A stretch of 64,000 nucleotides of DNA, from the IMG/VR virus record IMGVR_UViG_3300033066_001573; one strand, 5' to 3'. Of the stretch, positions 6,670 to 64,000 are shown one piece after another. A program made the translations under genes and the position numbers. Source of the stretch: an uncultured virus (IMG/VR IMGVR_UViG_3300033066_001573). Taxonomy: Duplodnaviria; Heunggongvirae; Uroviricota; Caudoviricetes. The notes beneath the pieces are model-generated. The model did no database searches. It saw only the letters and a list, made by a program, of their open reading frames with translations, and was not told the DNA's origin. The first letter of the stretch is position 1, and every line of letters begins with the position of its first letter.

Positions 6670-7341
6670 TTAAATAATTTTATAGTAAGGTTTTAAAAAA
6701 CACTTACGTAATTTTAATGTTCCAATAACTTCTTCATACTTTGCTTTTCTTTGAAGTATTTGTTCAAAGTGAGATTCATGAATTTCGTTACCAACTAAGT
6801 GTTGCCTCAAAATATTTTCTTGATTATTACTATTATCATAATCAGGTAAAATTAAATTTCCTGATGGATTAGGCTCTGTTTTTAATTCAGAATTAACTCC
6901 ATTGTCAATACCAAAAACTTCTTTTCCATCAATTACAACAGATTGTTCAGTAGTTGTATTTACTGAATCTGAAGTATCAACTTCATTTTGAACAGTTGCA
7001 ATTGTTTTGAAATACTCTTTATTTAATAATTTACTTTCATTTACACTACCTCCTTTTTCTTTTTTATCAATTTCATTCTTACGAAGTTCAAACAAATATA
7101 AATCCATTTCAGAATCTTTTACAATTAAAATAGAATCTTTTTTTGTTATATTTATATTTTCCTTATTTGCATTTTCATTTAAAATTCCTTTTTCTTTTAG
7201 AAGAAGTATAATTTTTTCATTTGATAATTTTTTAGTATCAATAACCAAACTCATATCAAATGATTTATTAATATAAACACTATATGACACTGATTTTTCA
7301 TCATTATCATTTTCATGTTTTATTTTATTTTTATTTTTCAT
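6670..7341 (-). CDS. Hypothetical protein with GG linker and shared C-terminal CFLKPYY module
   Basis: KEKGG; ends LRKCFLKPYYKII, like 9221..12028. Confidence 0.7.
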   Translation of the reverse strand: MKNKNKIKHENDNDEKSVSYSVYINKSFDMSLVIDTKKLSNEKIILLLKEKGILNENANKENINITKKDSILIVKDSEMDLYLFELRKNEIDKKEKGGSVNESKLLNKEYFKTIATVQNEVDTSDSVNTTTEQSVVIDGKEVFGIDNGVNSELKTEPNPSGNLILPDYDNSNNQENILRQHLVGNEIHESHFEQILQRKAKYEEVIGTLKLRKCFLKPYYKII

Positions 7342-8507
7342 AAATTATTAAATGTAAACGTTCCAAAGTTGTATATTTTTTCTATTTTTTTTATGGAATA
7401 ACTTTTTTTAGTTACTTCAACAACGATACTATTTCCTTTGTTGTGCGTTCCATTTGCCACAAATTTTTCACCATCAATCCAAATCAAATCTTTTGGTTGA
7501 ATTGGATAACGTTGTTTACGAATAGAAGGTTTAAATCCTTTTCTGTTTAACTGAATAGCCCTGTTATTTCTACGTTTTTGACGTATTGTAATCGGGATAA
7601 TTCGGTCTTGATTTGTTCCATTTGCAATCACAAAAGCATCATTGTAATGTGTTTTTTCAAGTCCTAATTTATTTCTATCAACAAAAGTTATGTAGCCGTA
7701 AGTTGCTTTAAATTTTAAATCACGATAAAATCTTTTCGCAATACTCGACATAAAAGTTTCTGCTTTAATTGTTTTTGGAGCAGATAATTTAAGTCCTTTT
7801 TTGTGTAATTTTTCATGACATTTTTTGTGTAAAATAGCTAAGTTTTTAGGCATGTTTGAACCTTTTTTACTACGCTCTAAAACATGGTGAATATGCGAAG
7901 GTTGCCCTTTCGAAAACTCTTTTTTACACACTTGACATTTTCCATTTTCACGAGACATTAAATAACTACGAACGTTTTGGTATCCGTACATATCGCCCTG
8001 TTGATAATCTGTTCCGCTTATATCAGGATTATTTATTTTCTGAATATCAAAATTTCCAACTTCAATTTTTACATTTGAAATAGGTAAAACTTTTTTACAC
8101 AAATTAATAATTTTTAGATGTGTATTATACCTTCTTTCAACTGATGGTTGCAACATTCCTAATCTCTTTTTTCTGTTTAAAAATCGTGGCTTACGATACC
8201 ATAATTTGTTTCTTCTACCTCTTCTGTACATTCTTTTTTCAGTCAATCTACTTGATGTGTTTCCATCTAAAATTACTGTTCCTGAAATCAATTCTTCTTT
8301 TTCTGATACGCAAGAAAACCCAATATTTTCAAAACCTGTGTCGATTCCTAAACTAACATTTTGCACTACATTCTCACACTCAAAATTTAATTGGATGGTG
8401 AATGGAAACATTTTAAAAACCTTTGCTTTACCTGATTTCAGTAGCTTTTTAGCTTTCGCAGGTTTGCAAGGCATTAAAGGATTTCCACTAATTCCAACTA
8501 CGTACAC
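7338..8507 (-). CDS. iscB: IscB RNA-guided endonuclease (likely start GTG 8507; frame open to 8681)
   Basis: PLMP motif (GNPLMPC), RuvC-I LGIDTG, bridge helix RMYRRGRR, RuvC-II IEVGNFD, HNH CQVC..HIHH..N...LHKKCH, RuvC-III THYNDA. Confidence 0.92.
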   Translation of the reverse strand: MYVVGISGNPLMPCKPAKAKKLLKSGKAKVFKMFPFTIQLNFECENVVQNVSLGIDTGFENIGFSCVSEKEELISGTVILDGNTSSRLTEKRMYRRGRRNKLWYRKPRFLNRKKRLGMLQPSVERRYNTHLKIINLCKKVLPISNVKIEVGNFDIQKINNPDISGTDYQQGDMYGYQNVRSYLMSRENGKCQVCKKEFSKGQPSHIHHVLERSKKGSNMPKNLAILHKKCHEKLHKKGLKLSAPKTIKAETFMSSIAKRFYRDLKFKATYGYITFVDRNKLGLEKTHYNDAFVIANGTNQDRIIPITIRQKRRNNRAIQLNRKGFKPSIRKQRYPIQPKDLIWIDGEKFVANGTHNKGNSIVVEVTKKSYSIKKIEKIYNFGTFTFNNL

Positions 8508-8775
8508 AACAACTTTACGTTTCGATGTACGCTTCGATAAATCCACTTCGGGGATGTTAAGAGAGGTTTTTGAACTTGCAACACTAAGAGTTTCCTCTTT
8601 GTTTAATTGCAAATCACAGTTGCTACGGACTTGTGGAGCATCCGTAGGTGTGTATGTATTTCTCTTTCTTAACTTCTGCATTTTACTTTTTAATTTAAAA
8701 CTTACCCCCTAATCAACCTGTTACCCTCGAATCTCACGATTCAAGCCCGAACCTTTTAAAGTGTGGGTGATTGAC
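8508..8775 (-). ncRNA. omegaRNA (HEARO-like) scaffold of IscB
   Basis: GC-elevated structured region upstream of PLMP; GTCAATCACCC pairs with GGTTGATT; internal hairpin TTGAATCGTGAGATTCGA. Boundaries approximate. Confidence 0.75.
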
Positions 8776-9220: not shown

Positions 9221-12028
9221 TTATTTTATTTTTTTATAATATGGTTTAAGGAAACATCTACGAACATTATATCCGACAACTTCTTCTTCTGATTTAAGTT
9301 CTCTACCTAAATAAGTTTCTAAATCTTCTTCACTAATTTCTTTTCCTGAAGAAAGAGAACTACGTAATGAACGTTCAAGTGACTTTAATTCAGAACCACT
9401 AATAGTTCCACCTTCTTCAAACTCTTCAACTTCAATAATGTTAAATCCTTTTTTAGCAGCTAAACTTTTTAATTTATTTTGAATAGTTGATGTTGTTTGA
9501 GAATACTTTTTTGAAGTGATTTTAACATCCATTCCTTTACGAGTAGCAATTAATGTATAGTAATTTCTTAAAAGAACTTCTTTATCATGTTCATTATAAT
9601 GAGTAGATAAATTCTTCACGCTAACTTGTTCATTAGACTCAAGGAACGATTCAAGTACATCTTCATTTTTAGTAACTCTTCCTCCTTTAGCCATTTTTTT
9701 AGACTTACTTACTCTATCAAAAATAACATATCCATCTTCAAGCATTGTATCAATGAATGAATCAATCATATATCTTTCGAAGAAATATACTTCAGAATCA
9801 TCATGACCTTCATCAGTTAAATCTCCATTATCATCATAATAGAATCCATCAGTAATAGCAGGAGCTTCAGTTAATCCAAAACCTTGTGCGCCAATATCAT
9901 CAAAATACATAAGTTCAGAATTCCCTCTTATATCATCAAATAATTCTGACATGATATAATCATCATTTCTGTCATCATCACGCATTTCTAAAACTTCTGC
10001 TCTTCCATCTTCATCTAATGTAATTTTCAAATTACCATTAGGTGTAATATCAAGGCTAATGTATCTTCCTGAATGTAAATGTTTAGACAAATCTAATTTA
10101 CCACCTTCTTTAAGAATAGGAGTTTTAGTTGTTCTAACTTCAAACCAACCTTCTTGTTTCTTTAGTAATTCAGCGTTATTAGATATAGCATCATTCATTT
10201 CTTTAGTGTCTTTACCACTCATAGTCAATGATGATTTTTTGAAAACTCTACTTGTTGGAGTTGCTTTATATTCAATTCCAAAAATATATCTTTCTTTACC
10301 AACTGACCCACCTGATTCAAATTTATTTTGAAGAGCATCCATAATCATTTTCATGGTTTCTCTCTTACCTACATAATTTTTACCAAGACTTACATGAAGA
10401 CCATCTTTCTTAAAGATTTGAACATCACATTCTTTAACTCCAACGAAAACTTTAAGTTGAACTTCGTGTCCATTAATATTTCCTCCTAAGAAATGCCATT
10501 TATTTGTTTGTTTAAATGCATCTTTAAGCTTTTGTTCAAAATCTTCAATCTCTCCACCATCTGCCATTTTTTTAGAAGAAAGAAGAGCATCGTAATCAAC
10601 AATATCAGTATATCTTAAAACATCAATATTTTCTTTGAGTGTCTTTTTATAGTTCTCAGCAAACTTCTCAATAGCTTTTAATACAGCACCTTCTTCTTTA
10701 TTAGGAGTTCTAAAAGGAATCTTAACTGATTTCATAGCTAAGTATTTTTCCTTTGGGTCATCCAAATTTGGATTTCTGTAAATAGCTTGTCCACCATTAC
10801 CTCCAAATATTTGAGGATGTAATTCAAGTGAAGATAAATCTAAAGTCAAACTAACTGCTTGAGGGTATTGACCACGTACATTATTAATAGCATAATCAGA
10901 AGCAGCAATAAGAATACCTAAGTTTTTACCTTCTCCAAAATAGTTTTTATAAGTCCAAACTCTACGATAAAAATTAGGAACTACTTTTTCTAAAATAGCT
11001 TCAATTTTTGATTTTAAGTCATGTTCTTTTTCAGTAAGTTCTCCACCATCAGCAAATGTTCTTAATGTTTCTGCCAAATGCGCACGTTTAGATGTTTTAC
11101 CACCCATTTTTTCAAGCTTATGTAAATCAGTCATAGAAAGATTTTCATCTTCATTACGAAGTAAACCTTTACGCATTGCAGTTCTTCTTAAAGCACCTTT
11201 ATTTTTTCCACCTGATAATGCTCTTTGAATCCATTTTTTTGATTTTATATTTCCACCTTTAGCGTAATCCTTAAAATAATCAAATAAGTAAAGAGATTGT
11301 TTTATTGCATTTGGTAAATCAGAATAAATTGTTGTAGCCCACTTATCAATATCAATTGTAGTATTTTTACTTTCTTTACGATACTCTCTTTTTATAAAAG
11401 GCTTATGTTCATTTAAAAAATTAATTCTTTGGTTTAAACTTAAACTTTCCCATATTTCTTCCCTTGTTTTACCTTTAACATCGCCACCTTTTTTGAAAAC
11501 ACCTAATTGATGAATCATTCCATCATCTCCAACTTCAAGGTCAACACTTTTCATTTCACGAGCAGCGTTTTCTAATTTTTCTTCAACATCTTTATCGTAA
11601 CCTCTATCAAAGAATCCTGCACCATGACCATTACGAGTAAGCCATAAATCATGACCTAGTTGCTCATCAGTTGAACCACTTGCTTCAATAGCATCGTAGT
11701 TATCTTCAATGAACATTTTAACGTCCTTGTACATTCTTTCTCTTGTAGCAGGAGCAATATCAGAAACAGAGTAATTAGCATCTAATGGCTCATCAGTATC
11801 CATATCAGTAGAAGACCATAAGGCAGCAATCATGTAGTTATCTAAAACTTCATTTATTCTATCTTCAGAAATTTCTCCGCCTTTACCAAATCTCTTTGTT
11901 CTGTTAACATCAGAACGGTTTTCACGATATTCATAATAAGTATTTCCATCAGTGGAAACACGTTTCCCACTATGTTTAGCTTTGATTTTTTTATCTCTTG
12001 AAATTGCTAATTTTGTTCTTCTGTTCAT
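9221..12028 (-). CDS. Large modular polyprotein-like protein (935 aa) with nine xxGG linkers
   Basis: FGKGG, FKKGG, YAKGG, FADGG, MADGG, FESGG, LKEGG, MAKGG and FEEGG separate unrelated modules, including a GHDLWLTRNGHGAGFFDR phage module. Confidence 0.8.
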   Translation of the reverse strand: MNRRTKLAISRDKKIKAKHSGKRVSTDGNTYYEYRENRSDVNRTKRFGKGGEISEDRINEVLDNYMIAALWSSTDMDTDEPLDANYSVSDIAPATRERMYKDVKMFIEDNYDAIEASGSTDEQLGHDLWLTRNGHGAGFFDRGYDKDVEEKLENAAREMKSVDLEVGDDGMIHQLGVFKKGGDVKGKTREEIWESLSLNQRINFLNEHKPFIKREYRKESKNTTIDIDKWATTIYSDLPNAIKQSLYLFDYFKDYAKGGNIKSKKWIQRALSGGKNKGALRRTAMRKGLLRNEDENLSMTDLHKLEKMGGKTSKRAHLAETLRTFADGGELTEKEHDLKSKIEAILEKVVPNFYRRVWTYKNYFGEGKNLGILIAASDYAINNVRGQYPQAVSLTLDLSSLELHPQIFGGNGGQAIYRNPNLDDPKEKYLAMKSVKIPFRTPNKEEGAVLKAIEKFAENYKKTLKENIDVLRYTDIVDYDALLSSKKMADGGEIEDFEQKLKDAFKQTNKWHFLGGNINGHEVQLKVFVGVKECDVQIFKKDGLHVSLGKNYVGKRETMKMIMDALQNKFESGGSVGKERYIFGIEYKATPTSRVFKKSSLTMSGKDTKEMNDAISNNAELLKKQEGWFEVRTTKTPILKEGGKLDLSKHLHSGRYISLDITPNGNLKITLDEDGRAEVLEMRDDDRNDDYIMSELFDDIRGNSELMYFDDIGAQGFGLTEAPAITDGFYYDDNGDLTDEGHDDSEVYFFERYMIDSFIDTMLEDGYVIFDRVSKSKKMAKGGRVTKNEDVLESFLESNEQVSVKNLSTHYNEHDKEVLLRNYYTLIATRKGMDVKITSKKYSQTTSTIQNKLKSLAAKKGFNIIEVEEFEEGGTISGSELKSLERSLRSSLSSGKEISEEDLETYLGRELKSEEEVVGYNVRRCFLKPYYKKIK

Positions 12029-12048
12029 CTTGAATGTCTTTTTATTTA

Positions 12049-12653: not shown

Positions 12654-12658
12654 TTTTT

Positions 12659-15600
12659 TTAGTATGCTCTTTTATTTTTACTAGGCTTATCCGAGTGGTC
12701 ACGACGAAGTTCTTTGTATATTCTACGACGAGCAGATTTATCACCTTCCTCATAAGCTTGAATGTCTTTTTGAGTTACAGGTTTGTAATATTCTTTATCC
12801 GTTTTTTCAATAGTACGAAGTCTTCCTGTTTTCTTATCTACAATCTTACGATAGCGGTATCCAACAGGTCTTGCACGTACTGACGTGTCTCTACCACCAT
12901 AAGGAATATCCCTTTCATATTGTGCGCCACGTTGTTTTATAGCTCCACCTTTTTTTAATAAATCAAAATCGTGGTATTTATCTGCTAAAAATAAGTTGCC
13001 TTCAATTTCAAAAAGTGTCTTTCCATCTTTAGTTTCAGCAGTATCAACAACATCATTCCAAGCATCCCAATAACCTTCATTTTCAGGGTCACTAAGTTCT
13101 GTATAATCTTCTTTATTCAATCCAAATTCTTTGAAATCATATCTTTCATAGAATGTTTGAGGTACATAAATACCACGATTAGCATCTATTAATAATTCAG
13201 GCTCATTTACCCCTCCACCTTTAGCGTAATCTTCTACATTAGCGTATTTCGATTCAATTTTAATTTTTACATTTTTAGGTAAAAAATTAAATGTTTTTCC
13301 AACTAATGTTTGTTGAGTTCTTGGTGTTATTTCAGGTGTAAAGTTTTCATGTAAAAAATTTATTTTGTCTGAACTACTTAATTTCCCCCAAACTAATTCA
13401 CCTTTACTTACATGACCTCCTCTAGCAAATTCTTCTTCATCAGAATTTTCATCAATAGCTTCTTGATATTTTTTATTTAAAGTAATACCATGTTTTTTAG
13501 CAATATTAGGATAGTGCATTAAATCACCATTACCCTCTGCAAAATCAATATAACCTTCTGTAATGTCAACTATTTCAGATTCTTCAGTAGGAATTACATC
13601 TCCACCATATCCTCTGTATAAAACATCATATTCAAATGTTTCGTACTCTTCATTTTCTTTACCTTCAGAAATAACTAAACCTACTAATCCTCTGCTTCCT
13701 AAAGTTCTATTAAAAACTAAATCTCCTACTTTGAATTTATGTCCAATCCCACCACCATTTTTCATTTGATTTAATTTACTAAAATCAAATTTATTATAAT
13801 TATCTCCGTTTTCTTCAACCATTATACTACGTAAATAATCTAATTGATTTTCAGTAAAATATTCATGCTGATACTCTCCGTAATAAATTTTTTCTCCATT
13901 TTCAAGCTCTACTCCTTTTACCCTTGCATTAGTCCATAATAAATTACCTTTTACAATAATTAAATTATTACCTAAATCACTTCCTACATTTAAAGTTTTC
14001 GCTACACTAACAGCATCATAAAACCCTTTATTTTGAGTCGTACCTGCCTTTGCTTTGTTATATGCTATTATTGCATAGTTAGAATTATCAGAAGAATCAA
14101 CCCCACCACCATTAGACATTTTTTTAGCTTTCTTTTCTTTGCTTCTTTCGAATTCATCAACAATTTCTTCTACGAAGTCATCACCTTTCCACCCTCCAAA
14201 TGTTTTGAATGTCGTAGTTAATACTTCAACAGGTGAACCTAATTTAATTTTCTTTTTAGAACCATCATCATAAAGTTCATAGTAATTAACATCAGAATCT
14301 TGCTGTGCATCAAATGTAACTGAAGTGCCATCTTTAAATTCAAGATTAACTGAGTGTTTACCATCAATTACTTCTTCATAAAACTTCATTAAAACATCTT
14401 CTTTAGATTCTCCCTCTAAGAATATTGGGTCTCCGTAGTTACCACGAACATCACCGCCCATGTGAGGATGAGCTATCAAAACAAAACGTTCATCGTATAT
14501 GCTGTAAATTCTAAAGTTCCAATCAAATAATCCAAGATAACTTGAGTTATAAGTATTATCAGAAGCTACTTGTTCAAACTCTTCTCCTTCAGGACTTTGT
14601 AATCCCCATCCACTATCGTCTACTTTCAATGAAGTTGCTTTTTCAAATTCTTCAGTAGAACCATACATAGCGGATTTTCTTACTTTATCAAGAAACTCTT
14701 TTTCTGATTTTTTATCATTAGAATCAAAGCTTCCGTGATTATAAGAATTCCAATAATTAACAGCAGATTTTAAATTAGGAACAATGTTTTCTTTAATCCA
14801 TTCTCGTCTTTCAGCATAAGACATGTCCTTAACTTCTGTATCAGGACTACTTTTTTGTTTTTCATTAGGCACATCATATCTCTTAACAAAAGTTATTTTT
14901 TTATCTTTAACTAATTGCTGAGCTTCTTGTGGAGATAACTTTTTAACCAAATTCTTTTTGCTATCATAAAGATTATAATAATCAACTTCATGTTCTGAAG
15001 GCGTTAAAACAGAAACAACATATCCATCTTTTAGCTTGCCTCCATCTAATGCATATTTAACTTTAAATGTAGCCTTATATTCTCCAATAGTAACAGAACC
15101 ACCTTTTGCAAACTTACGAGAAAAACGAACAGGTTCTTTATCTGAATGGTCTGCTCTTACCTCAAAACCAAGCATTTTACGAGCTGTTACATCTCCATCT
15201 TTATAAGCTTTAATTTCTTTTTGAGTTGGAGTAGCATAATACTTTTTATCCTCTTTTGTAACTACACGCAATTTTCCTGTCTTAGGGTCACGTATTCTTT
15301 CATAACGGAATCCAACAGGTTTAGCTTTATGCTTTCTATCTCCTGAGCCATATCCATCAATTTTATATTGTGCGCCTTTTTGTTTTACAGAACCTCCTTT
15401 AGCTAATTTTATTGGAGAAACACTACCATTAACTTTTTTAGCAAAATCATCTGCTGATTCTTTTTCGTTTTCTTCAAAAACTCTTTCTCTCATTTGACCT
15501 TCTTCACTTACATAAAAAACTATGTATTTTGTTTTCTTCAAGTTACCGCCTTTTTTAAAGTTCGAACGCATTACTAAGTTCATAGGTATATTATAACCTT

Positions 15601-16594
15601 CAGTGTCAATAACAGGCTCAGATGGTAAATTTCCGTCTTCATCAGGCTCACCATTTTCATCCTCTATATATTCAATGTCTAACCAATCAGAAGTTTCAGG
15701 ATTTTCGCTTCCAAAGGCATCACGAACTCGTGCAGCTTCTCCATCATCACTCAACATAATTTCATATCCACCTGAATTTGAAACTGTGTAATGACCGTGA
15801 ACAATAAATTCATCTTCAACATCACCACCTTTAGCATAGGTTTTATTTGAATATAAAACATACTGAGTAGTATTTCCATATCGTTCTAATAATCCACTAC
15901 CATCAAATTCATTTCTTTTTATATCATTTAAGGTATTGAAATAAGGACTTACAACTTGTATTCTATTATCTGAATATGTTTTAGAAGCAGTTACCCCATC
16001 ATAAGTTTTATTTATATGGTCAATTTTATCTTGTAAAATACTAACTCCATCACCATTAGCATATTCTCCTTTGGCATGTTTTAATGAATCAGGAGACCAA
16101 CTATAATCATTTTCTTCTGTTTCAATATTTCCGTTTTTATTTACTCTTAATACAGTTTCTATTTTACCCTCTCTTGTTAATACTTTATCTCCTTTACGGA
16201 ATTTTTTACTACCAACTCTTCCACCATTAGCGTACTCTCTTACGTTTTCATTTATGTAATCTACTACTTCATCAAACATACCTTCTTGCATATTTGCATA
16301 ACGGAAGAATTGTCTTTTTTGAGACTCATCCATATCGTTATAAAGTTTTTTTACTTGAGTTATATTTCCGTTGATTAAACTATCATTGATGTAATCAAAA
16401 TATTCTTCAATAGAAGTAAAATCTAGTGGAGTCCAAAGGTCTCCGCCTTTACGGAACTTTTTTGTTCTATTGGCATCAGACCTATTTTCTCTGTACTCAT
16501 AATAAATATTACCATCAGCAGAAATACGCTTCCCACCATGTAAAGATTTTAATTTTTTATCTCTTGCAATTGCTAATTTAGTTCTTCTGTTCAT
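12659..16594 (-). CDS. Large modular polyprotein-like protein with about 12 xxGG linkers (start corrected to MNRRTK)
   Basis: N-terminus nearly identical to 9221..12028; linkers FRKGG, YANGG, YAKGG x2, FKKGG, LAKGG, FAKGG, MSNGG, MKNGG, FARGG, LKKGG. Confidence 0.8.
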   Translation of the reverse strand: MNRRTKLAIARDKKLKSLHGGKRISADGNIYYEYRENRSDANRTKKFRKGGDLWTPLDFTSIEEYFDYINDSLINGNITQVKKLYNDMDESQKRQFFRYANMQEGMFDEVVDYINENVREYANGGRVGSKKFRKGDKVLTREGKIETVLRVNKNGNIETEENDYSWSPDSLKHAKGEYANGDGVSILQDKIDHINKTYDGVTASKTYSDNRIQVVSPYFNTLNDIKRNEFDGSGLLERYGNTTQYVLYSNKTYAKGGDVEDEFIVHGHYTVSNSGGYEIMLSDDGEAARVRDAFGSENPETSDWLDIEYIEDENGEPDEDGNLPSEPVIDTEGYNIPMNLVMRSNFKKGGNLKKTKYIVFYVSEEGQMRERVFEENEKESADDFAKKVNGSVSPIKLAKGGSVKQKGAQYKIDGYGSGDRKHKAKPVGFRYERIRDPKTGKLRVVTKEDKKYYATPTQKEIKAYKDGDVTARKMLGFEVRADHSDKEPVRFSRKFAKGGSVTIGEYKATFKVKYALDGGKLKDGYVVSVLTPSEHEVDYYNLYDSKKNLVKKLSPQEAQQLVKDKKITFVKRYDVPNEKQKSSPDTEVKDMSYAERREWIKENIVPNLKSAVNYWNSYNHGSFDSNDKKSEKEFLDKVRKSAMYGSTEEFEKATSLKVDDSGWGLQSPEGEEFEQVASDNTYNSSYLGLFDWNFRIYSIYDERFVLIAHPHMGGDVRGNYGDPIFLEGESKEDVLMKFYEEVIDGKHSVNLEFKDGTSVTFDAQQDSDVNYYELYDDGSKKKIKLGSPVEVLTTTFKTFGGWKGDDFVEEIVDEFERSKEKKAKKMSNGGGVDSSDNSNYAIIAYNKAKAGTTQNKGFYDAVSVAKTLNVGSDLGNNLIIVKGNLLWTNARVKGVELENGEKIYYGEYQHEYFTENQLDYLRSIMVEENGDNYNKFDFSKLNQMKNGGGIGHKFKVGDLVFNRTLGSRGLVGLVISEGKENEEYETFEYDVLYRGYGGDVIPTEESEIVDITEGYIDFAEGNGDLMHYPNIAKKHGITLNKKYQEAIDENSDEEEFARGGHVSKGELVWGKLSSSDKINFLHENFTPEITPRTQQTLVGKTFNFLPKNVKIKIESKYANVEDYAKGGGVNEPELLIDANRGIYVPQTFYERYDFKEFGLNKEDYTELSDPENEGYWDAWNDVVDTAETKDGKTLFEIEGNLFLADKYHDFDLLKKGGAIKQRGAQYERDIPYGGRDTSVRARPVGYRYRKIVDKKTGRLRTIEKTDKEYYKPVTQKDIQAYEEGDKSARRRIYKELRRDHSDKPSKNKRAY

Positions 16595-50342: not shown

Positions 50343-50499
50343 TTAAAGCTTTCCTTCCTTTTTTAATTTTTTAGATGCAAGAGAAACTGCTTCAGAATAC
50401 TTTTTAAGTTTTCCTTCTGCCCAAATTTTCTTTTCCTCTGATTGAATCATAGTCATACGTTCCTTGTTCTTACTTGAACCTGCTGATTTTTTTTGCCAT
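50343..50499 (-). other. Small basic helical ORF interrupted by an A8 run (frameshifted or slippage-expressed)
   Basis: With A7 it reads MAKKSAGSSKNKERMTMIQSEEKKIWAEGKLKKYSEAVSLASKKLKKEGKL*; an in-frame ATG also exists at 50456. Confidence 0.5.
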
Positions 50500-54860: not shown

Positions 54861-57800
54861 TTAATTAAAATATTTGTTAGTTGGATACACTTCTAAAACA
54901 GGTTTTTCGATTGATGGAATAGAGCCTTCATAAGCTAAAACAAAAACAATGTCACCATCTTTATATTTAACGAATAAACCACCAATACTATCTGAATAAG
55001 GTTCATTCGTTAGCTCATCAACTTCACTGAATTTTGGGTCAAAGTGAGTAAGTATTTCTTTTACCTCAGTGCTATCAGAAATAAATTGAAGTGAATCATC
55101 TTCTTGAGCATCACCAATAGTTTTAATTCCAAATCCAAACTCTCCGCCAAATTCCATTTTACTCATTTCTTTTTCCTTGTATTTTTTAGCAAAGTTAAGA
55201 GTATCAACAAGTATTCTCATAGCTTTATTATTCTCTTTTTCTTTTCTAAGTTCATACAATTCTTTTTCCATTTCCTGCATTTTCTTTAGGTCAGCAGCGG
55301 CAGCTAATTCAAATGGTTTATTTTGTTCTTTTTCGTATTCCTCAAGATTAGCATTATACTTTCTAATCATTTCCTCAACAGCATCTTCTTCTCTTGCTCT
55401 ATCTTGAACATCATATCGGTGAGCAATAGTTTTGAATTCTTCAAAATACATATTCATTGGGAATCCTAATGAGTAAAGTATTTCAATTATCTTTTCTGCA
55501 TTTTCTTTTCCAACAATATCAGCCTCATAATAATCTCCCCACTTAGTCCAACGAGAATCTAAGTATTGATTAAGTTCATTGTTTTTATCAATATGATAGC
55601 TCTTCTTTTTTGTAGCTTCTCTTCTTAGTAAAAGCTTGTTAGCTCTAGGAGTAATTTTTATAATATCATCATCACCAAAAACTAAAACTTTACTTGTTCC
55701 AAGTGCATTACCTACAATATCTTTAGCTGCCTCTACAGGTATTTTAACGTATAAAGCATAAGGATTAAATCCTTCTTCAAGTAAAATACCTTTCTTTACT
55801 TTTTTATCGATTGTAGAGTAGCTAATCAATTTGTTTTGACCACTGCTTAACTCAGGAATACCATAAGCTTTAAGAATGTTTCCTGTTACAATGTAACGCT
55901 TAACACGCTCTGATATTGAATCCTTAATTTTATCATCCCAATCATTGAATAAGTTTTTACCTAAAACTTCTCTCTGTCTGTTATCATAAACATCATTAGT
56001 AGAATCCATTATTTTCTTTATGTCTTGCATACTAGCGAAGCTTAATTCAACTTGACGTAAAGAAGAAGGGAAGGCTATTTTTAAAGAGAATCCGTATGAA
56101 CTCAACCATTTACCTGAATCCATTTTAACTCCAATAACAATTCCGTCAAAGTTTTGCTTTTGAACTTTATAAGAAATAATTGTTTTAGGTTTAAAGAAAG
56201 AAACTACTTCTTTAAACTCTTTAGCTCTTTTGTAAACACTTTCTAATTGAGATATTTTCTCATCCCACAATTCAATTATATGAGCTGTTTCATCTCTTAA
56301 AGCTTCTGCTCTTTTCGATTCATTTTTAATTTTAGTAAATCTCTTATCCTTACTTAATCCATCTACCTCTCTTTGTTTAGCTTTAATATACTGAGGATAA
56401 AAATGATTGTATTCTTCTTTTGCTCTATTGTCAATAGCATCATGAAGCATATCAACGTATTCCTCAATAGATACATCAACTATATTTTGTTTAATATCCT
56501 TAGTAGATAAAATACCTGCAAAAAGATTTCTTAGATAATTTTTATTAAAAGGTTTTCTAATATTGTTTATCTCACAAAGTTCAAGGAATGTAGCTCCACC
56601 AAATAATGATTTTTTCTTAGGATTACCAACTGATACAGCATCTTTTTCAATAGTTTTAGCTTGTAAATCTAAACTATCAACTTCTAAGTTCCATCTACCT
56701 TCTTGAATTAATTTAGATTGATATGCCTTGTACATATCAGTAACTTCATTGTAGAATTTCTCTTGGTCTTCAGTACTAAGTATAGCAACTCTTCCTGTAG
56801 CCCTGTGAGCCAATTCTTGAATAGAGCCACTAGGAATATTTTCTGTTTCTCCATTTTCATTAATAATAGTTTCATAAGAAACAGGGTTTCCTATCATATT
56901 ATTAACTTCAGGATTATTAGCTAAATATTTCGCTACAACTTCATCACCATATTCATTCAAGAAATCAACAACATCAAGTATTTCATTTGATTGTTTTTGA
57001 TTTGAAGAAGTATTAGCATCTAATGAACGAAGCTTTTTTCTAAGCATCATCATTAAACGTTTTTGAGAAGGGATAGCTGAAATAATATAATCGTAAATAG
57101 GGTTGAATATCATACCTGTACGGAATATTCTACCACGCTTTTGAACTTCTTTATTTACATCACGCTCAGCTTCAAGTATAATCATACAACGTTGCTTAAC
57201 CTCTTCTGTATTTTCTAATGAAGTAGGCACAACAGGTATTCCGTTTTCGTAATTAACTTGATTAACTTTTGTTGTTTTTATAGAGTGTGCAGAAGAACCT
57301 GTAGCACCTGCTTGATTGATAATCAAACAATCGATTACGTTATTATTGAAGTTATTAAAAACATCAGTAGCATTTGGAATATTTCTATTCTTAACATAAC
57401 CACTTTCTTCTGTTTTATCAAATTCAACAATACGAGTTCTTCCTGTTACTTCTTCAACAGTAAATCCTGCTTCAGCAATTCTTTTTCTAATTAAATCAAT
57501 AGGACTAATAGTTATTCCTGTAAGTAAACTATCGATACTCTCAACTATTGTCTCGTAATTTAATTGTGCTTTACCACCAAGTTCTTCAATATCTAAACGA
57601 TTTTTTTCAGGTACACCTTCTTTAGATATAGTTGTATAAGATAAAGCGTTAGCAAGTCTTCTTTTTAATATTACAGAAAAATCAACATCAATTTTAGAGC
57701 CTGTACTTTCTTCGATAGCATAATCTAATGCACTTTCCATAGTAGAAGCGAGAGCAATGATTGGTTTTTTACCTTGCTTCATTCTATACACAGCCCATGT

Positions 57801-59456
57801 AGCAACTGCCTCTGCATTTATAGAGAAGAATAATTGATTAACAATATTGAATATGCCTTGATAAGCGTTGTTATTATATAAATCTGCTTGACAAACTGCA
57901 CGAGCAGCATCTTTTTCATCACGACTACCGAAAAGTATCTGATTAGCTAATTCTACTCCACATTCTGATTCAATCCAACCTTGTCTTTTTGCATGTACAA
58001 TAGGATTAACATCTTTTTGAACGAACTTAATAATATCACGAATAACAGATAAGAATCTATCCGCAATAGCATAATGAGCATTCTTTAAGTTAAAATCAGG
58101 TTCTTTTACTTCAGCAGATTCATCGAGTGTCATATAATTAATCTCGATTCCTTCGTAGCTTCTTTCTCTACGAATCATCTGTCCTTCTGCAACTAACTGA
58201 GAAGAAATTATTTCTTGCATCGCAACTCCACCTTTTGTTAAAGCAGATATTAATTCTTCTGAGGTTAAATCAGCATCAGCGATATTAGATTTAATTGAAT
58301 AAATAGGCATATTATCAGGTCTTTTAGCATAAGTAGCAGACGCAAATAAATTACCCTTAGTACCTTCAACAATATTTTGTAAAATTGAACCTCTACGTGA
58401 AGCTCCTGAGCTATTATGTGACTCATCCATACAAACGATATTATCCTTTGCAACTTCCATCATAAACTCAACTTTTTTAGAAGCTCTCATTGAACTAAAT
58501 TGAGAATAAGTAGCAAGAACACAATCGTATTCTTCAACTAATGTTTTTGAAGAAAGAACTTCATTTAATTTTACAGAAGGTAATCCTTTGTATAGGATAT
58601 TACCATCTTCATCTTTAATTTCTGTTTTACTACTTGCACCATTTATAATGAATGGAACAAATCTCTTTTCACCTTGAATGTCTTCTTCATAAGATTTATT
58701 TGTAGTGTACTTATAAACCTTCATTACTTGGTCAGGGAAGTTCTCAGCACGATAAGCATCAATAGCTTGTTCTGTAAGTTCTTTATTTCCTTTTTTGAAA
58801 AGTAAATCACCATCAAATCCTTCTAAATCAAAGTCATCATTGTCAATATCTTCCTTCATAGCTGAAATAACTAATTCACGAGATACTTCAACTGTTTTTT
58901 CAACCTCACCACTTCTGAATTTTATTGGGATACCTGCATCTAAACCGATAGCAATCATATCACGATAAATATCAGAATACAAGTTTGGTCTTTCTGTAAT
59001 GAATATTGGCTTTTTACCCTGAACCTTTGCGTATCTCATTACTCCTGCAAGGCATCGACCTTTGCCTGCCCCTGCCATATCGCCTAAAATCAAGGCTTTA
59101 CCATCTTGAATTTGTACAATTGCAGCAGCAATAGCATCAATTTGTTCAGCACTAAAAGCTCGGCACAATTCAATCATATCATTGTATCCAAGTTGCTCCA
59201 TAACAAACAAATCGATACCACGAACCTTTCTGTCAATATCCTTTAAGTTTTTGTTCATATCAAACAACATGCGAATAGGAGCTGACATATTTAGTGTATC
59301 ACACACTTCAGAAGTAGGAATGTATGCATCAATAGTAGCATCAGCATTTTGAATATTCTTTTCCTCTACAGGATTAGAATCATCAATTTGTTTTTGTTCG
59401 GTACTAATAACGTTTGTAATTTCGTCTTTATTTGAAAGCGGATTATCTTGCATCAT
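54861..59456 (-). CDS. Strawberry-notch-like SF2 helicase, polyvalent
   Basis: LGDMAGAGKGR, ATYSQ, MDESHN, SATYAKRPDNM, EVTGR, QKRGRIFRTG, LRSLDANTS; terminal module after MEFGG. Confidence 0.88.
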   Translation of the reverse strand: MMQDNPLSNKDEITNVISTEQKQIDDSNPVEEKNIQNADATIDAYIPTSEVCDTLNMSAPIRMLFDMNKNLKDIDRKVRGIDLFVMEQLGYNDMIELCRAFSAEQIDAIAAAIVQIQDGKALILGDMAGAGKGRCLAGVMRYAKVQGKKPIFITERPNLYSDIYRDMIAIGLDAGIPIKFRSGEVEKTVEVSRELVISAMKEDIDNDDFDLEGFDGDLLFKKGNKELTEQAIDAYRAENFPDQVMKVYKYTTNKSYEEDIQGEKRFVPFIINGASSKTEIKDEDGNILYKGLPSVKLNEVLSSKTLVEEYDCVLATYSQFSSMRASKKVEFMMEVAKDNIVCMDESHNSSGASRRGSILQNIVEGTKGNLFASATYAKRPDNMPIYSIKSNIADADLTSEELISALTKGGVAMQEIISSQLVAEGQMIRRERSYEGIEINYMTLDESAEVKEPDFNLKNAHYAIADRFLSVIRDIIKFVQKDVNPIVHAKRQGWIESECGVELANQILFGSRDEKDAARAVCQADLYNNNAYQGIFNIVNQLFFSINAEAVATWAVYRMKQGKKPIIALASTMESALDYAIEESTGSKIDVDFSVILKRRLANALSYTTISKEGVPEKNRLDIEELGGKAQLNYETIVESIDSLLTGITISPIDLIRKRIAEAGFTVEEVTGRTRIVEFDKTEESGYVKNRNIPNATDVFNNFNNNVIDCLIINQAGATGSSAHSIKTTKVNQVNYENGIPVVPTSLENTEEVKQRCMIILEAERDVNKEVQKRGRIFRTGMIFNPIYDYIISAIPSQKRLMMMLRKKLRSLDANTSSNQKQSNEILDVVDFLNEYGDEVVAKYLANNPEVNNMIGNPVSYETIINENGETENIPSGSIQELAHRATGRVAILSTEDQEKFYNEVTDMYKAYQSKLIQEGRWNLEVDSLDLQAKTIEKDAVSVGNPKKKSLFGGATFLELCEINNIRKPFNKNYLRNLFAGILSTKDIKQNIVDVSIEEYVDMLHDAIDNRAKEEYNHFYPQYIKAKQREVDGLSKDKRFTKIKNESKRAEALRDETAHIIELWDEKISQLESVYKRAKEFKEVVSFFKPKTIISYKVQKQNFDGIVIGVKMDSGKWLSSYGFSLKIAFPSSLRQVELSFASMQDIKKIMDSTNDVYDNRQREVLGKNLFNDWDDKIKDSISERVKRYIVTGNILKAYGIPELSSGQNKLISYSTIDKKVKKGILLEEGFNPYALYVKIPVEAAKDIVGNALGTSKVLVFGDDDIIKITPRANKLLLRREATKKKSYHIDKNNELNQYLDSRWTKWGDYYEADIVGKENAEKIIEILYSLGFPMNMYFEEFKTIAHRYDVQDRAREEDAVEEMIRKYNANLEEYEKEQNKPFELAAAADLKKMQEMEKELYELRKEKENNKAMRILVDTLNFAKKYKEKEMSKMEFGGEFGFGIKTIGDAQEDDSLQFISDSTEVKEILTHFDPKFSEVDELTNEPYSDSIGGLFVKYKDGDIVFVLAYEGSIPSIEKPVLEVYPTNKYFN

Positions 59457-59524: not shown

Positions 59525-60448
59525 TTATTCTATATGCTCAACAATATCGTTAACACATTCTTTACCTTTTTCTGTTAACGAAAAAGCGTTACCTACAATT
59601 TCGTAATCCCTGAATAAATATCCTTTACTAACTAAATCAGAAACATATTCTAAATCTTTAGAAGAACTAATAAAGAAGCCATCTAGGTCATCATTAAAGT
59701 TCCTGTATAGTATTTCACCTTGATAACCACCAATATCATTGTAGTCTCTTGAAATAACCTCAGATATATCTTGTGTAACATCATAAGTTGTTGCAGATAA
59801 ATTACCGCCTTGTTCTTTTAGTGGAATCTGAGATACACCAATGTCAGAAATAACCTCAAAAAGACTATCATCTTCTTTTAGAACGATTAAATAAATACCT
59901 CTAGGCTCATAAATAACAATGCTATCGAAACCTGCCTTAAGAAGCTTTGTGTTTAATTCATTCTTATCCTTTACTTCTCCTTTTCCAATTAGCTTATTTA
60001 AAAGCTCTGTGTATTCGAAAGAAGGGGTTAATCTGTCATGGTTTATAAAAACGTATGGTTGCTTTATTCTTGGCTTAATAGTAACAAAGCGAGCATTCTC
60101 AAACTTATCCCTGTAGAAATCAAAATCATCAAGGAAGTAAATTCCAAACCCATACTTGTTAGCTGAATCATAAGAAATTTGAAATGGCTCACTGATTGAA
60201 GGATAATACCTGTAGAACTCCATTGAGTTTATTTTATCAACAGTTGGATAGTTAAGTGCCTTAGCCTCTCCACCATCTTTAAATATTTCCTTATCATCAG
60301 CATAACCAATAATTCTTTCTTTTGAAACTAATGATTCACCGATACCATTATGCATAACGTAGAAATCCCCACGTACATCTAAAATATCTCCTTTAGTTAT
60401 TTTTCCATTTTCTGAGAATAGAACTGAGTCTGTTAATTCGTATTTCAT
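59525..60448 (-). CDS. Three-module protein with a central ADP-ribosyltransferase-like (polyvalent ART) domain
   Basis: FKDGG | FYRY...YGFGIYF...IKQP...LLKAGFDSIVI | KEQGG. Confidence 0.5.
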   Translation of the reverse strand: MKYELTDSVLFSENGKITKGDILDVRGDFYVMHNGIGESLVSKERIIGYADDKEIFKDGGEAKALNYPTVDKINSMEFYRYYPSISEPFQISYDSANKYGFGIYFLDDFDFYRDKFENARFVTIKPRIKQPYVFINHDRLTPSFEYTELLNKLIGKGEVKDKNELNTKLLKAGFDSIVIYEPRGIYLIVLKEDDSLFEVISDIGVSQIPLKEQGGNLSATTYDVTQDISEVISRDYNDIGGYQGEILYRNFNDDLDGFFISSSKDLEYVSDLVSKGYLFRDYEIVGNAFSLTEKGKECVNDIVEHIE

Positions 60449-60459: not shown

Positions 60460-63400
60460 TTATGCGTTTAAATCTTTCAAAACATATTCAATATCCTTAA
60501 AGAAAACCTCCATTGTGTCTTGGTCTTCATCATAGAAATTAGTTCCTATTGCTGAAACAGAATCATAATCATACAATTCAATCTCGAAAGTTCTATCGTT
60601 TTCATCACCGTCTCCAATAACCAAAACTTCTACTTTGTAACTTCCATCTTTTTCTATATAACCTAATTTTTTAAGATATTTAGCGAATTCATATCCTGTA
60701 TATGGCTTTATAACTAATTTATTTCTTCTTTTTTTAGTTAAGATACCACCATCTTTCATCTCAGAATTATCTTCAATAAATAAGTTCTTTTTCAATTGCT
60801 TAATCGCTTGCTCTTTTAATTCTTTTTTCAAGTATCCATTTTCATCATATTTATCTCCATCCCAATCTCCGAACAAATCAAATTCAGTAACAGCAGCAAA
60901 TCCTTTAATGTTTCCATGTCTGTATATTCTTATAAAACTAGGATTAGCGTCATCATAATTTAACGCATTTTGATACGCATCAGCAACATATTTTTGGTAT
61001 ATTATTTTATTAGAATAGAATTTATTTGAATACTTATCATGATATTCTTTACTTACATAGAAAACAGCTTCGTAATCATTAATATCTTGTTTTGATTTTT
61101 TAAGAAACTCATAGAACTTCTTATGACCTGATTCATTAATATTTTTAAGGTACTCAATAATTATTTTTTGAGCATCTTTATCAGCAGCGGAATTAGTATT
61201 ATTGTGAACTACTATTTTAGGTTTTTCTGATACTTCTCCGCCATCATTGTAGTGAGTTGATGACTTCCAATGTTCATAGTTATTGAAATAATATGGAGGT
61301 ATGTTTTTTCTTTCTTCTTCTGTAAGACTTAACCTGTAATAAACATCCCATGCTTCTTTTTCTGCGGGTTGATTAATATAGGTATAATATGAAAATATAG
61401 AGATATTATCTTCTACAAAATCATAAATAGCTAACCTTCGTTCACTATTTTTAGTATTTCCTGCTCGAATGACGGAAGACCTTCCTCTTTCAACATAGTA
61501 TCTAATTGCATCTTTAATTTCATTGTAGCTTGCTGCTTTTCCAAAGTCATGTCGTCCCTGAATGTAGTGCTGTGTTTCGTGTGTAATGACTGCGTTAAGC
61601 TTTCTACGTATGCTCTCGATTCCCTCATCACTTGTTCCCGATTTCCTAATTTTTTCATAATTTTTTATGTTTAATGTAATAAAAATATAAAATTTTTCAT
61701 CCTTATAACCTGATAAAGCAGATATTAATTGTTCTTGATTTGGCTCATTATCTAAAACAAAGATAATATCTTTTGAATTAGGATAAAGATAATATAAATT
61801 TTCATGATTAAAAATATCAGATAACTTATATTTATAAATAAAATTATCGTAGTTTTCAACAAGTTTATCTAAGGAAATACCTATATCCGAGTTACTATCA
61901 TCAATTTCAAACTTAAATTTTTTATCTGATTCATCATAAATCCACCCCGTATCTTCCCAAACTTTTTTAGGAGAAATACCATCTTTTATTAATAATTTAG
62001 CTTTATTTAAAAGGTTATAATTTGGAGCTTTTTCAAGTTCTCCGCCATATAAATACTTCTTTATTAGTTTTGTTTCTTCTGATTTGATGTACTCTGAACC
62101 TTTAGCATTTGAACCTGCGCTCTTGCTTCTTCCAATGTAATTGGCGGTTGTTTTGATAACATCTTCATTCCTAACTTTGCTCTTTCCTGAAATGATATTG
62201 TTGATTTCATCTTTTTTTTTATCTAAATTGTCAAAATATCCTCCATCATTCATGGAATCCTTACCTACCTTATTGGTTAAGAACTCCTTCTTATTTAAGT
62301 CATAGTAAAGCATACCATGAGGCATTTCAGATTCATTACTCTTAATAGAAACTCTAATTCCTGATTCTTCAAGTCTTATTAATGAAGAAACATTTTCTGA
62401 AATATAAAGTCCATTTTTAGAAACTCCGAACTGAACTGTATCAATTCCCATTTTAATTATAGCGGCTAATGCTTCTATAAAATCACCTAAACAAATAGTG
62501 AATAAATTAGCACCTTGTTTAATGTAAAGAATAGAATAGCTAGATACTTTTAATTTCAAACCATCAACTTCTTTTTTAACGTAATCTTTATAAGCTTTAC
62601 TCGAATAAACAACGCTCATATCCTTGAACATAGTTTGTATTTGGTCATGTGTTAAAACGGAAATGCCTTTATTGAATTCACCTTTTTCGTTGCCATATGT
62701 TGCCATATATTCTTGGAAAAACTGAATAGCTTTTTTATCTTTTAGCATATTAAGTCTTTTAGCTCCGTATGCAGGTAAAATATTTTTAGCTGAATTACTA
62801 AGACCATAAATACCTTCTTCAATATTATTTTTAGGAAGATAACCTTTTTTACCTTTAAGGAAAATGTCAAGTGTGAACTTACTTGCGAATACTCCGTCTT
62901 TACCAAAATAAACTCCTAATGTAGAAGTAAGAACCTTAGTTTTATTAACGAATGCATCAACTATCTCAGCTAAATTTTTATCTTTAGGATTTAGGTCGTA
63001 TTCTAATTCGTTAGGCACTTCGAATGGAGAGTATGGTAATAAGTTAAAAATATTATTTAGCTTCTTATTTTCGCTTCCAAAAATCATTTCAGAATCAATA
63101 ACATTTTCAATGAATTTATTTACAACATCTTCTTCATAGTGAGCGTTATTGTAAATACCATACATTAACATTTTATTTCTTTGGTTTTCCGTAAGGTATT
63201 CATTTTGTAAATCTAACCATACAGGAGTATAGAATATGTATTCAGAAACTACATCATTAAATAATGAAACAAAGTGATTAAGTATTTGATTTTTTAGAAA
63301 AGATTCTACTTCATCAGGAACTCCATCTCCTATTTGTTTATGAGCATATTTTATTTTATCAATAATTGGTCTAGCTTTTAACTCAACTATTTCTTCAACA

Positions 63401-64000
63401 GATAATCCTTCTAACTCTCTTTGTTTTTGAGAAAAAGCTTCCATGTATTCGTCATGACTGCTAAATTTAGAAGGGTCTAATTCTTCCATTGTTTTCTCTG
63501 CCTGAATAAGAACGTCATAGTAATAAGGATTTTCAACTAAATGGTCTTTAACTATTTCTCCCATTTTTTGTTTATCCTTAGTATGCTCTCTTTCAACTTT
63601 CAAACCTTTTTTAAATTGTCTGATTATTTCTTTTATAGGAACACCATGTTTTTCTGAAATATCATAAATAGATTGACTATCAGCGTATCCGCCAACTAAA
63701 CTTTCTATCTCTTCTTTTCTTTCACTTATAGCCTCTCCTAATAATCCTTCAGGAATTTCAAATCCTGCGCTCTCTATGATGAAGGCAACTTTATTTGCAG
63801 AAACAGTTCCTTCTTTAATTAATTTTTCATATTTATTTGAATCAATAGCATCATTAATTATTTGGCTGTATCTCTTATCTGATAAGTGATTCATTTCCGA
63901 ACGTTCGTACAAATAAGGAAAGCGAACCTTGTCAAGAACTTCTTCTTGATTAGCTTTCTTCATTGACCATACCGCTTGTATGTCAGGATGTAGTTCTATA
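60460..64000 (-). CDS. Large polyvalent protein, probably 5'-partial
   Basis: Frame is open to the window end (IELHPDIQAVWSMKK). Modules: GLKVEREH...DHLVENPYYY; TGW...DKKFKFEIDDS (LPD23-like); HETQHYIQ zincin. Linkers MNDGG, YLYGG, YNDGG, MKDGG. Confidence 0.8.
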   Translation of the reverse strand, partial: IELHPDIQAVWSMKKANQEEVLDKVRFPYLYERSEMNHLSDKRYSQIINDAIDSNKYEKLIKEGTVSANKVAFIIESAGFEIPEGLLGEAISERKEEIESLVGGYADSQSIYDISEKHGVPIKEIIRQFKKGLKVEREHTKDKQKMGEIVKDHLVENPYYYDVLIQAEKTMEELDPSKFSSHDEYMEAFSQKQRELEGLSVEEIVELKARPIIDKIKYAHKQIGDGVPDEVESFLKNQILNHFVSLFNDVVSEYIFYTPVWLDLQNEYLTENQRNKMLMYGIYNNAHYEEDVVNKFIENVIDSEMIFGSENKKLNNIFNLLPYSPFEVPNELEYDLNPKDKNLAEIVDAFVNKTKVLTSTLGVYFGKDGVFASKFTLDIFLKGKKGYLPKNNIEEGIYGLSNSAKNILPAYGAKRLNMLKDKKAIQFFQEYMATYGNEKGEFNKGISVLTHDQIQTMFKDMSVVYSSKAYKDYVKKEVDGLKLKVSSYSILYIKQGANLFTICLGDFIEALAAIIKMGIDTVQFGVSKNGLYISENVSSLIRLEESGIRVSIKSNESEMPHGMLYYDLNKKEFLTNKVGKDSMNDGGYFDNLDKKKDEINNIISGKSKVRNEDVIKTTANYIGRSKSAGSNAKGSEYIKSEETKLIKKYLYGGELEKAPNYNLLNKAKLLIKDGISPKKVWEDTGWIYDESDKKFKFEIDDSNSDIGISLDKLVENYDNFIYKYKLSDIFNHENLYYLYPNSKDIIFVLDNEPNQEQLISALSGYKDEKFYIFITLNIKNYEKIRKSGTSDEGIESIRRKLNAVITHETQHYIQGRHDFGKAASYNEIKDAIRYYVERGRSSVIRAGNTKNSERRLAIYDFVEDNISIFSYYTYINQPAEKEAWDVYYRLSLTEEERKNIPPYYFNNYEHWKSSTHYNDGGEVSEKPKIVVHNNTNSAADKDAQKIIIEYLKNINESGHKKFYEFLKKSKQDINDYEAVFYVSKEYHDKYSNKFYSNKIIYQKYVADAYQNALNYDDANPSFIRIYRHGNIKGFAAVTEFDLFGDWDGDKYDENGYLKKELKEQAIKQLKKNLFIEDNSEMKDGGILTKKRRNKLVIKPYTGYEFAKYLKKLGYIEKDGSYKVEVLVIGDGDENDRTFEIELYDYDSVSAIGTNFYDEDQDTMEVFFKDIEYVLKDLNA

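Follow-up and report, generated by a model that had tools for sequence, protein, structure and literature searches.

We analysed a 64 kb stretch of DNA (64,000 nucleotides, hereafter the window) from an uncultured virus of the Caudoviricetes, IMG/VR record IMGVR_UViG_3300033066_001573. The window has a G+C content of about 30%, holds nearly all of its genes on the minus strand, and is part of a large uncultured low-GC tailed phage. Its large open reading frames (ORFs) carry hallmark domains of polyvalent proteins according to Pfam (ArdA, an SF2/Strawberry-notch helicase, LPD23 and DUF5661), and seven minus-strand ORFs share a recurring di-glycine motif, [FYML]-x-x-G-G, which we call the seam (Table 1). 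The proteins they encode are chains of unrelated, independently folding and freely exchanged modules of about 50–250 amino acids (aa).

Table 1 Seam-bearing proteins of the window and their parts ("cargo" denotes a putative role).
Feature	Coordinates	Strand	Loose seams	Remarks
Cargo polyprotein A	9221..12028	-	9	935 aa; 51-aa basic leader, 8 modules, C-terminal anchor module
Leader of polyprotein A	11876..12028	-		ends in a seam
C-terminal anchor module of polyprotein A	9224..9406	-		ends ..CFLKPYYKKIK; preceded by seam FEEGG
Seam KMADGGEI	10553..10567	-		predicted local distance difference test (pLDDT) <50 at residues 488-493 of polyprotein A
Cargo polyprotein B	12659..16594	-	11	1311 aa from ATG 16594; ORF extends to TTG 16636; leader as in A
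Leader of polyprotein B	16442..16594	-		ends in a seam
Two-module protein	16627..17667	-	1	346 aa; seam EFKKGGDL at residue 161, kept in the ortholog of the relative G001
ArdA-bearing polyprotein	50470..54840	-	10	1456 aa; 7 strong seams; hydrophobic stretch at residues 170-195
SF2 / Strawberry-notch-type helicase	54861..59456	-	2	1531 aa; AAA_34, Helicase_C_4, ResIII (Pfam)
307-aa protein	59525..60448	-	1	60-aa N-terminal piece, FKDGG, 247-aa module without known family
Polyprotein with DUF5661, LPD23 and zincin-like module	60460..63999	-	4	open at 5' end of window
Zincin-like metallopeptidase module	61237..62040	-		268 aa; sole protease candidate in window
HETQH (HExxH) motif of zincin-like module	61567..61581	-		
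223-aa protein	6670..7341	-		degenerate seam KEKGGSV; C-terminal anchor module at 6670-6820 (hidden Markov model (HMM) E 2.3e-17)
244-aa Ala/Glu/Lys-rich scaffold-like coiled coil	48213..48947	-		anchor module at residues 196-243, 48213-48360 (HMM E 5.2e-8)

Counts, consensus and spread of the seam

A sequence-only reading of the window had put the motif at about 40 copies in these seven ORFs, with single copies in the proteins at 6670 and 30825. We counted 38 sites in the seven ORFs (7,079 aa), against 6.3 ± 2.5 (maximum 16) in 2000 residue shuffles, which bears the estimate out. Neither single copy survived: that of the 223-aa protein at 6670 is degenerate, lacking an aromatic residue or Met, and FKNGGIV in the ORF at 30825–31148 scores below 12 bits under the matrix given below, at chance level. 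The 64 other window ORFs (13,314 aa) contained 12 loose matches, most of them in hydrophobic membrane-like stretches.

Alignment of the 38 window sites revealed preferences beyond the search pattern. The residue two positions after GG was V (16), L (9), I (8), F (3) or A (2) in every case; K was the commonest residue just ahead of the aromatic residue or Met, and the two positions following the latter favoured A/K/E and then K/D/N. The core signal comprises eight residues, K-[FYM]-[AEK]-[KDN]-G-G-x-[VIL]. An 8-column matrix, trained on distant homologs alone with close relatives excluded, was applied with a cut-off of at least 12 bits, and returned 27 sites in eight cargo ORFs (7,288 aa) versus 0.23 (maximum 4) in shuffles, and none in all other window ORFs of at least 70 aa on both strands (14,767 aa). 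Matches to the loose pattern were enriched about 6-fold, and those to the matrix about 100-fold. The best-scoring window seam, KMADGGEI, reached 20.1 bits. In the helicase, the strong seam KMEFGGEF (13.5 bits, residue 1434) delimits a 93-aa C-terminal module, and LTKGG at residue 406, which falls within the AAA_34 domain (312–449), is probably a chance match. The flavour of the seam differs by gene cluster, being Y/F-S/K/E-D/N-GG in the head-side protein at 50470–54840 and F/M/Y-A-K-GG in the tail-side genes at 9221–16594; junctions may travel together with their modules.

A search with the 935-aa polyprotein A returned 118 large mosaic metagenomic proteins (P0001–P0118). These relatives contain 735 extended sites versus 38.8 expected, with 21 of the 118 lacking any. 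In a logo of 947 sites from the 118 proteins, information was confined to positions −1 to +6, and the flanks carried none. The make-up of the first position (F 35%, Y 31%, M 27%, L 8%) follows from the [FYML] search pattern. Independent of it are K, which directly precedes the aromatic residue or Met in 32% of sites, and V/I/L, which fills the second position after GG in 72%. Seams in the homologs were spaced at a median of 91.5 aa (5–95% range 50–245 aa). In 18 of 93 proteins a seam stood 7–15 residues behind the N-terminus, and some seams occurred in tandem.

The closest relative of the window is G001, an IMG/VR contig of 169,658 bp rated 82% complete, whose polyproteins are at most 87% identical to those of the window. 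It encodes two polyproteins of 1656 and 1939 aa with 15 and 17 sites (32 in total), and its other ORFs show scattered single matches only. In a second relative, G002 (locus L012; 53% complete), three adjacent proteins carry 8, 2 and 6 sites. Scanning IMG/VR with polyprotein B gave one related locus, with the zincin module one distant locus, and with a conserved module eight loci, among which L012 alone is a heavy seam user. No cultured-phage relative of the window was found, wide matches being limited to one module, and a search for cultured relatives with P0049 gave no match. The seam is a trait of the protein family and is specific to cargo proteins.

Seams as module boundaries

The AlphaFold2 model of polyprotein A, built from 48 aligned sequences, had a mean pLDDT of 77.3 and a predicted template modelling score (pTM) of 0.34, the latter indicating a predicted arrangement of beads on a string. 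All nine seams of this protein were placed in coil between confident domains. Residues with pLDDT below 50 numbered 126 of 935, yet eight of the nine seams touched such segments; the ninth lies in coil with a dip to 62, and the low-confidence segments 222–225, 408–417 and 542–546 fall away from seams. Across 11 homologs, none of 13 Pfam domains contained a seam, and seams often stood a few residues from domain ends. The earlier placement of the motif at module boundaries is upheld by both results.

That reading had also named ArdA, LPD23/zincin and ART-like domains as flanked by seams. For two of them the positions agree: ArdA of the 50470–54840 protein (residues 1130–1280, Pfam E 3.8e-19) has seams at 1116–1120 and 1404–1408 on either side, and in the 60460–63999 protein (DUF5661 at 113–168 and LPD23 at 649–704 by Pfam) the LPD23/zincin module lies between seams 649–653 and 917–921. 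The ART-like label for the 307-aa protein had to be dropped, as it gave no Pfam hit at E ≤ 0.01, and BLASTP against an ART-PolyVal-bearing homolog returned E 1.3. Elsewhere, polyprotein homologs carry RadC, GNAT, ART-PolyVal and LPD11 domains.

Comparison among relatives placed the boundaries at the same positions. Local alignments of 124 proteins, 7279 in all, began within 10 aa of a seam in 52% of cases and ended within that distance in 50%, versus 17% in shifted controls. Among 44 shorter homologs, nine (119–137 aa) match module 52–182 and four (145–150 aa) match module 330–492 as stand-alone proteins; all 13 are free of the seam, and each begins after and finishes before the seam position. 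A third module, when last in a protein, terminates where GG would come next. The seam peptide is added upon fusion, and stand-alone and terminal module copies do without it. The expectation that the pieces would have stand-alone homologs thus proved right for two of the ten pieces of polyprotein A, with homologs that are motif-free.

At the DNA level, blocks of a polyprotein compared with G001 within one gene were 97, 93, 90, 89 and 72–75% identical, and most block ends lay 0–24 nt from seams. Polyprotein B and its 87%-identical G001 ortholog differ in whole modules that are present in one phage and absent from the other, with breakpoints at seams. The seven ORFs comprise 45 segments of at least 30 aa, and cutting the relatives at seams produced 1039 segments that fall into 346 clusters, 224 of them singletons. 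Together with the Pfam hallmarks and the separate AlphaFold2 domains, this clustering supports a polyvalent type of protein made of unrelated modules. Pfam searches with 30 single segments at E ≤ 0.5 gave sub-threshold noise alone, and Foldseek with the whole 935-aa model found nothing at E ≤ 0.001.

Leader, C-terminal anchor and gene context

Polyproteins A and B share a very basic 51-aa leader that ends in a seam. A leader mini-module (..GKRxSxDGNxYYEYRENRSD..) recurs within other polyproteins, in up to four copies in P0011. At the other end of polyprotein A lies a module of about 50 aa (..LGRxPxYxxxVG....KCFLKPYYK). An HMM of this anchor module, built from six non-window copies, matched exactly three window proteins: polyprotein A (E 1.2e-17), the 223-aa protein and the scaffold-like coiled coil (Table 1), the next ORF reaching no better than E 0.48. 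Across 162 related proteins there were 29 matches in 28 proteins, 28 of them at the extreme C-terminus, and each C-terminal copy has a seam 2–33 residues ahead under the looser pattern [FYMLKHW]xxGG. In L012 the module ends all three adjacent seam proteins. The window and its relatives have seams between leader and first module and between last module and anchor, an arrangement that, as architecture alone, is that of targeting pieces. By analogy with scaffold C-termini and encapsulin cargo peptides, the sharing of the C-terminal module with a scaffold-like protein suggests that it may be a particle-loading tag.

The polyprotein genes are interspersed with genes for small membrane-like proteins and lie upstream of transglycosylase and baseplate-like genes, both in the window and in G002. 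This gene context and the shared C-terminal module point to the polyproteins as putative virion cargo. Four of the small proteins interleaved with the polyprotein genes (12049–12558, 8886–9182, 6264–6668 and 5713–6267) have a hydrophobic helix containing Gly-Gly (e.g. LLIGGSLLA), and may be membrane-inserting ejection proteins. A like stretch is that of the ArdA-bearing polyprotein (Table 1), and many polyprotein homologs begin with a similar hydrophobic helix (MIPYILAAVGGYLIG..).

Pfam and PHROG scans of the window further identified an SLT transglycosylase, a large-terminase fragment, an RRXRR-HNH endonuclease and an IS605-type TnpB. The TnpB (OrfB_IS605 plus a Cas12f-like TNB domain) adjoins a 278-aa ORF that matches the C-terminal part of the large terminase alone (43779–44993, 45196–46032). 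The gene for the terminase is possibly split or interrupted. The RRXRR-HNH endonuclease gene (7338–8681) sits between cargo genes, and its G001 homolog is placed elsewhere (L002, 12880–14217); it is therefore probably a mobile homing element. A long island at 29055–43813, part of it on the plus strand, holds glycosyltransferase, FkbM/TylF-type methyltransferase and pyruvyl-transferase genes, which suggests sugar modification of DNA, virion or host surface. In G001, some 17 genes for DNA methyltransferases (N6_N4_Mtase, D12, MT-A70, Dam) follow one another at loci L006–L008 (about 77–115 kb), which further carry Fic, RtcB, RNA ligase, NADAR and integrase; the anti-restriction load is heavy. A tRNA search of the window found none, and searches of PDB sequences with a pair of large neighbouring ORFs returned nothing.

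Proposed cleavage at the seam and its alternatives

The seam behaves as a recognition site and not as a passive linker: its length is fixed, fixed side chains flank the GG, and it recurs in hundreds of unrelated contexts. It also sets leader and anchor apart from the cargo. Most likely it is a mark by which the chain is cut or handled within the particle; cleavage is the simplest reading, and anchored cargo would need release. The sequence-only reading, which had proposed polyproteins that are packaged and cut into single factors, is supported in part. Our best reading, which we hold tentatively, is that the seam is the site of putative cleavage by one protease. The C-terminal module would load the cargo proteins into the particle, and a single phage- or host-encoded protease would recognise the seam; its cutting would free the modules from the anchor and from one another, and each freed module would leave via the tail to act by itself, either against restriction (ArdA) or as another kind of takeover factor. 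Three scissile bonds may be considered. Cutting after GG would be in the style of viral cysteine proteases, cutting before the aliphatic residue would suit a zincin with a hydrophobic S1' pocket, and cutting after F/Y/M would suit a chymotrypsin-like P1 preference, in the same register as the bond cut in the T5 tape-measure protein pb2.

Several known systems resemble such a scheme in part. In T4, where gp21 acts on internal proteins that bear a capsid-targeting sequence, as in giant phages of the phiKZ/SPN3US type, a targeting piece loads the cargo, cuts follow at one short consensus common to many virion proteins, and ejection proteins are released for delivery. Their head-protease sites end in Glu and not in Gly-Gly, however, and their substrates are not chains of a dozen modules; here, moreover, the targeting piece is apparently C-terminal and common to a scaffold-like protein, and no credible match to an S77, S78 or ClpP-type protease came up in the window or in the incomplete G001 and G002. 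The analogy fits in logic, not in site.

Adenovirus protease and pS273R of African swine fever virus (ASFV), both of clan CE, also cut structural or core polyproteins of large DNA viruses beside Gly-Gly within the particle, and the sequence-only reading had drawn on them. The adenain consensus has a hydrophobic residue at P4 and Gly-Gly at P2–P1. In detail the parallel fails, in that the seam places its hydrophobic residue three positions before GG, five rather than four residues ahead of a bond after GG (P5), and adds a conserved aliphatic P2'. The hosts of those viruses are eukaryotic, and a Pfam scan of the window ORFs and of 255 ORFs of G001, mostly unannotated and in both cases from an incomplete genome, showed no clan-CE protease. 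Double-glycine leader peptides, in which a C39 peptidase-transporter acts on one N-terminal leader that ends in GG, differ in that seams are internal and number up to 11 per window chain and up to 17 in G001, and Pfam found no C39 domain in the window.

Virion-internal proteins of other phages are cut as well. According to the available text of the respective papers, T5 pb2 is cut after R1127 (PMC10038345), and lambda gpH is cut in a glycine-rich C-terminal region by a catalyst that is not known (PMC12617516). The T5 cut lies beside A-E-G-G-x-M, and the polyprotein genes here precede transglycosylase and baseplate-like genes; however, T5 pb2 and lambda gpH have one site per protein and are long helical rulers, not module chains. 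Under the seam matrix, the T5 site FVPR|AEGGMMYP ranked at the top of 1212 eight-residue windows of pb2, with a weak score of 4.2 bits and Arg in place of the aromatic residue or Met. We regard this match as a suggestive precedent for cleavage.

The closest published concept is that of polyvalent proteins, defined by Iyer et al. 2017, who predict processing by embedded zincin-like metallopeptidases (PMC5512222, in the available text, to which all statements on this paper refer). Polyvalent proteins are likewise giant proteins of many unrelated domains, sharing ArdA, the SF2/Strawberry-notch helicase, LPD23 and an HExxH zincin with the window, and are predicted to be effectors delivered along with DNA. 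In contrast, no junction motif is defined there, the words 'linker' and 'glycine' being absent from that text, whereas the window chains have a fixed eight-residue seam at nearly every joint and mostly tiny modules, for the most part without assigned family. No description of the seam motif was found in the literature searched, a search that did not cover supplements. The general idea of polyvalent-protein processing is already published.

We then considered the zincin-like module as a candidate enzyme. It has 656 homologs at E ≤ 1e-3, and in an alignment of 29 sequences H154, E155 and H158 were invariant and E227/E229 nearly so. The model (pLDDT 86.6) shows strands at 93–97, 106–113 and 116–123, a helix at 138–164 with H154-E155-x-x-H158, and E227/E229 in a helix at 225–236. 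This topology matches that given by Iyer et al. for polyvalent-protein zincins, with a three-stranded sheet, an HExxH helix and a downstream Glu ligand. Neither Foldseek nor a wide VIA search with the model yielded a significant match. Several zinc proteases were among the weak rows, and those from VIA aligned to a helical hairpin alone. A zincin-family profile had no match among PDB sequences at E ≤ 1. Complex prediction of the zincin module with Zn and a 50-aa stretch around the best seam (score 0.01, mark 0.34) was evidence neither way. In numerous members of the zincin family (P0169, P0170, P0175, P0178, P0181, P0182 and P0186), a conserved G-F-A-x-G-G stands exactly 12 residues after HExxH and resembles the seam F-A-K-G-G; it may be a coincidence or a built-in substrate mimic.

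A number of observations weigh against cleavage. Pfam and PHROG searches of the window and of the 255 G001 ORFs turned up no protease from a known head or di-glycine family, and PF04586 and PF00574 were unmatched in G001 and G002, at 82% and 53% completeness. PF03420 was also unmatched in both, in a search that is uninformative since its control gave no signal. A match to phrog_53 'head maturation protease' (E 0.005) was rejected as a low-complexity coiled-coil artefact. The 150 best zincin homologs contained 52 strict seams versus 2.9 in shuffles, but these were concentrated in about 10 proteins, most homologs having none, and some of the strict sites are the intrinsic GFAxGG element; therefore the zincin family does not track the motif. 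N4 vRNAP, ArdC and TraC1 remain full length (PMC5512222). In the AlphaFold2 model of polyprotein A the connectors are short, with the next helix or strand 2–14 residues after GG and F/Y/M often ending the preceding element, so access of a protease to the seam may be tight. The low absolute score of the T5 site belongs here too, and selection for viable junctions would account for the breakpoints at seams just as well.

That last point leads to the strongest competing explanation, in which the seam is an uncleaved standard joint: a GG hinge with small hydrophobic caps that would permit fusion of any module to any other without misfolding, kept because only such joints give viable chimeras, with the polyproteins acting whole. 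We consider this unlikely, although much of the comparative evidence agrees with it. Identity to G001 is uneven between neighbouring blocks whose ends mostly lie 0–24 nt from seams, orthologs 87% identical in shared blocks differ in module content, alignment ends cluster at seams, the aromatic residue or Met often closes the final helix or strand of the preceding module, and known polyvalent proteins can remain full length (PMC5512222). Across module families that number about 350 and are unrelated, however, a passive hinge requires neither a fixed K nor F/Y/M to the exclusion of I/V/W, nor a fixed aliphatic residue at +2. Seams also follow N-terminal peptides of 6–14 residues and occur in tandem, with nothing to hinge, stand-alone modules fold without the caps, and the varied codons of the seam speak against conserved DNA microhomology.

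Less probable again is that the seam is an uncut docking or handling signal. One partner, for instance a packaging chaperone, the inside of the capsid, the lumen of the tail or an ejection machine, would bind it repeatedly to thread the chain, or to hold it, one module at a time. Several features are consistent with docking: the seam is compact and position-specific, as short linear motifs are, and lies in disordered segments, it is limited to proteins with virion-cargo hallmarks and present at extreme N-termini, and the polyprotein genes are located among small membrane-like proteins upstream of transglycosylase and baseplate-like genes. A dedicated C-terminal module already resembles a loading signal, however, and up to 17 copies per chain are many for an address tag.

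It is highly improbable that the motif is a by-product without function at the protein level, despite K-G-G being encodable by the Shine-Dalgarno-like AAAGGAGG (AAA GGA GGN) and Met standing first in 7 of the 38 window sites: chance, low complexity and one repeated domain were ruled out by the shuffles, the matrix test and the 346 clusters of unrelated segments, translation cannot start at F or Y, and a Shine-Dalgarno or internal-start reading was ruled out by codon usage. The Gly codons of seams vary (GGT, GGA, GGC), and selection therefore acts on the protein. The first seam Gly is GGT or GGC in 84% of cases versus 50% of other Gly codons in the same genes, and GGA in 6 of 38 only. GGAGG is apparently avoided in seam codons, and the host therefore probably uses Shine-Dalgarno pairing.

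For cleavage, the defined eight-residue seam offers a concrete site with which to address whether and how polyvalent proteins are disassembled; it can be mutated, built into reporters and sought in proteomic data. In the shared C-terminal module the phage may possess a natural tag for cargo loading, and the T5 pb2 match ties the motif to the old question of what cuts tape-measure proteins. It is possible, though in our view doubtful, that a widespread group of uncultured phages uses the seam universally as a 'cut here' code. Cargo would be loaded by a C-terminal module borrowed from the scaffold, and a protease would then dice the polyproteins at about 30–40 seams in each genome to give dozens of small effectors; the tape-measure cuts of T5 and lambda may be due to this activity as well.

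Cut in silico at their seams, hundreds of giant metagenomic proteins fall into natural units, which make up a catalogue of small modules (346 clusters from the present set), mostly without known family. The modules between seams are candidate factors of early host takeover or of anti-defence. The sequence-only reading had cast the uncharacterised ones as an anti-defence library, which they may be, although ArdA alone carries such an annotation. If the 'cut here' code is true, the roughly 350 module families would list, already parsed, the takeover and anti-defence proteins that such phages inject.

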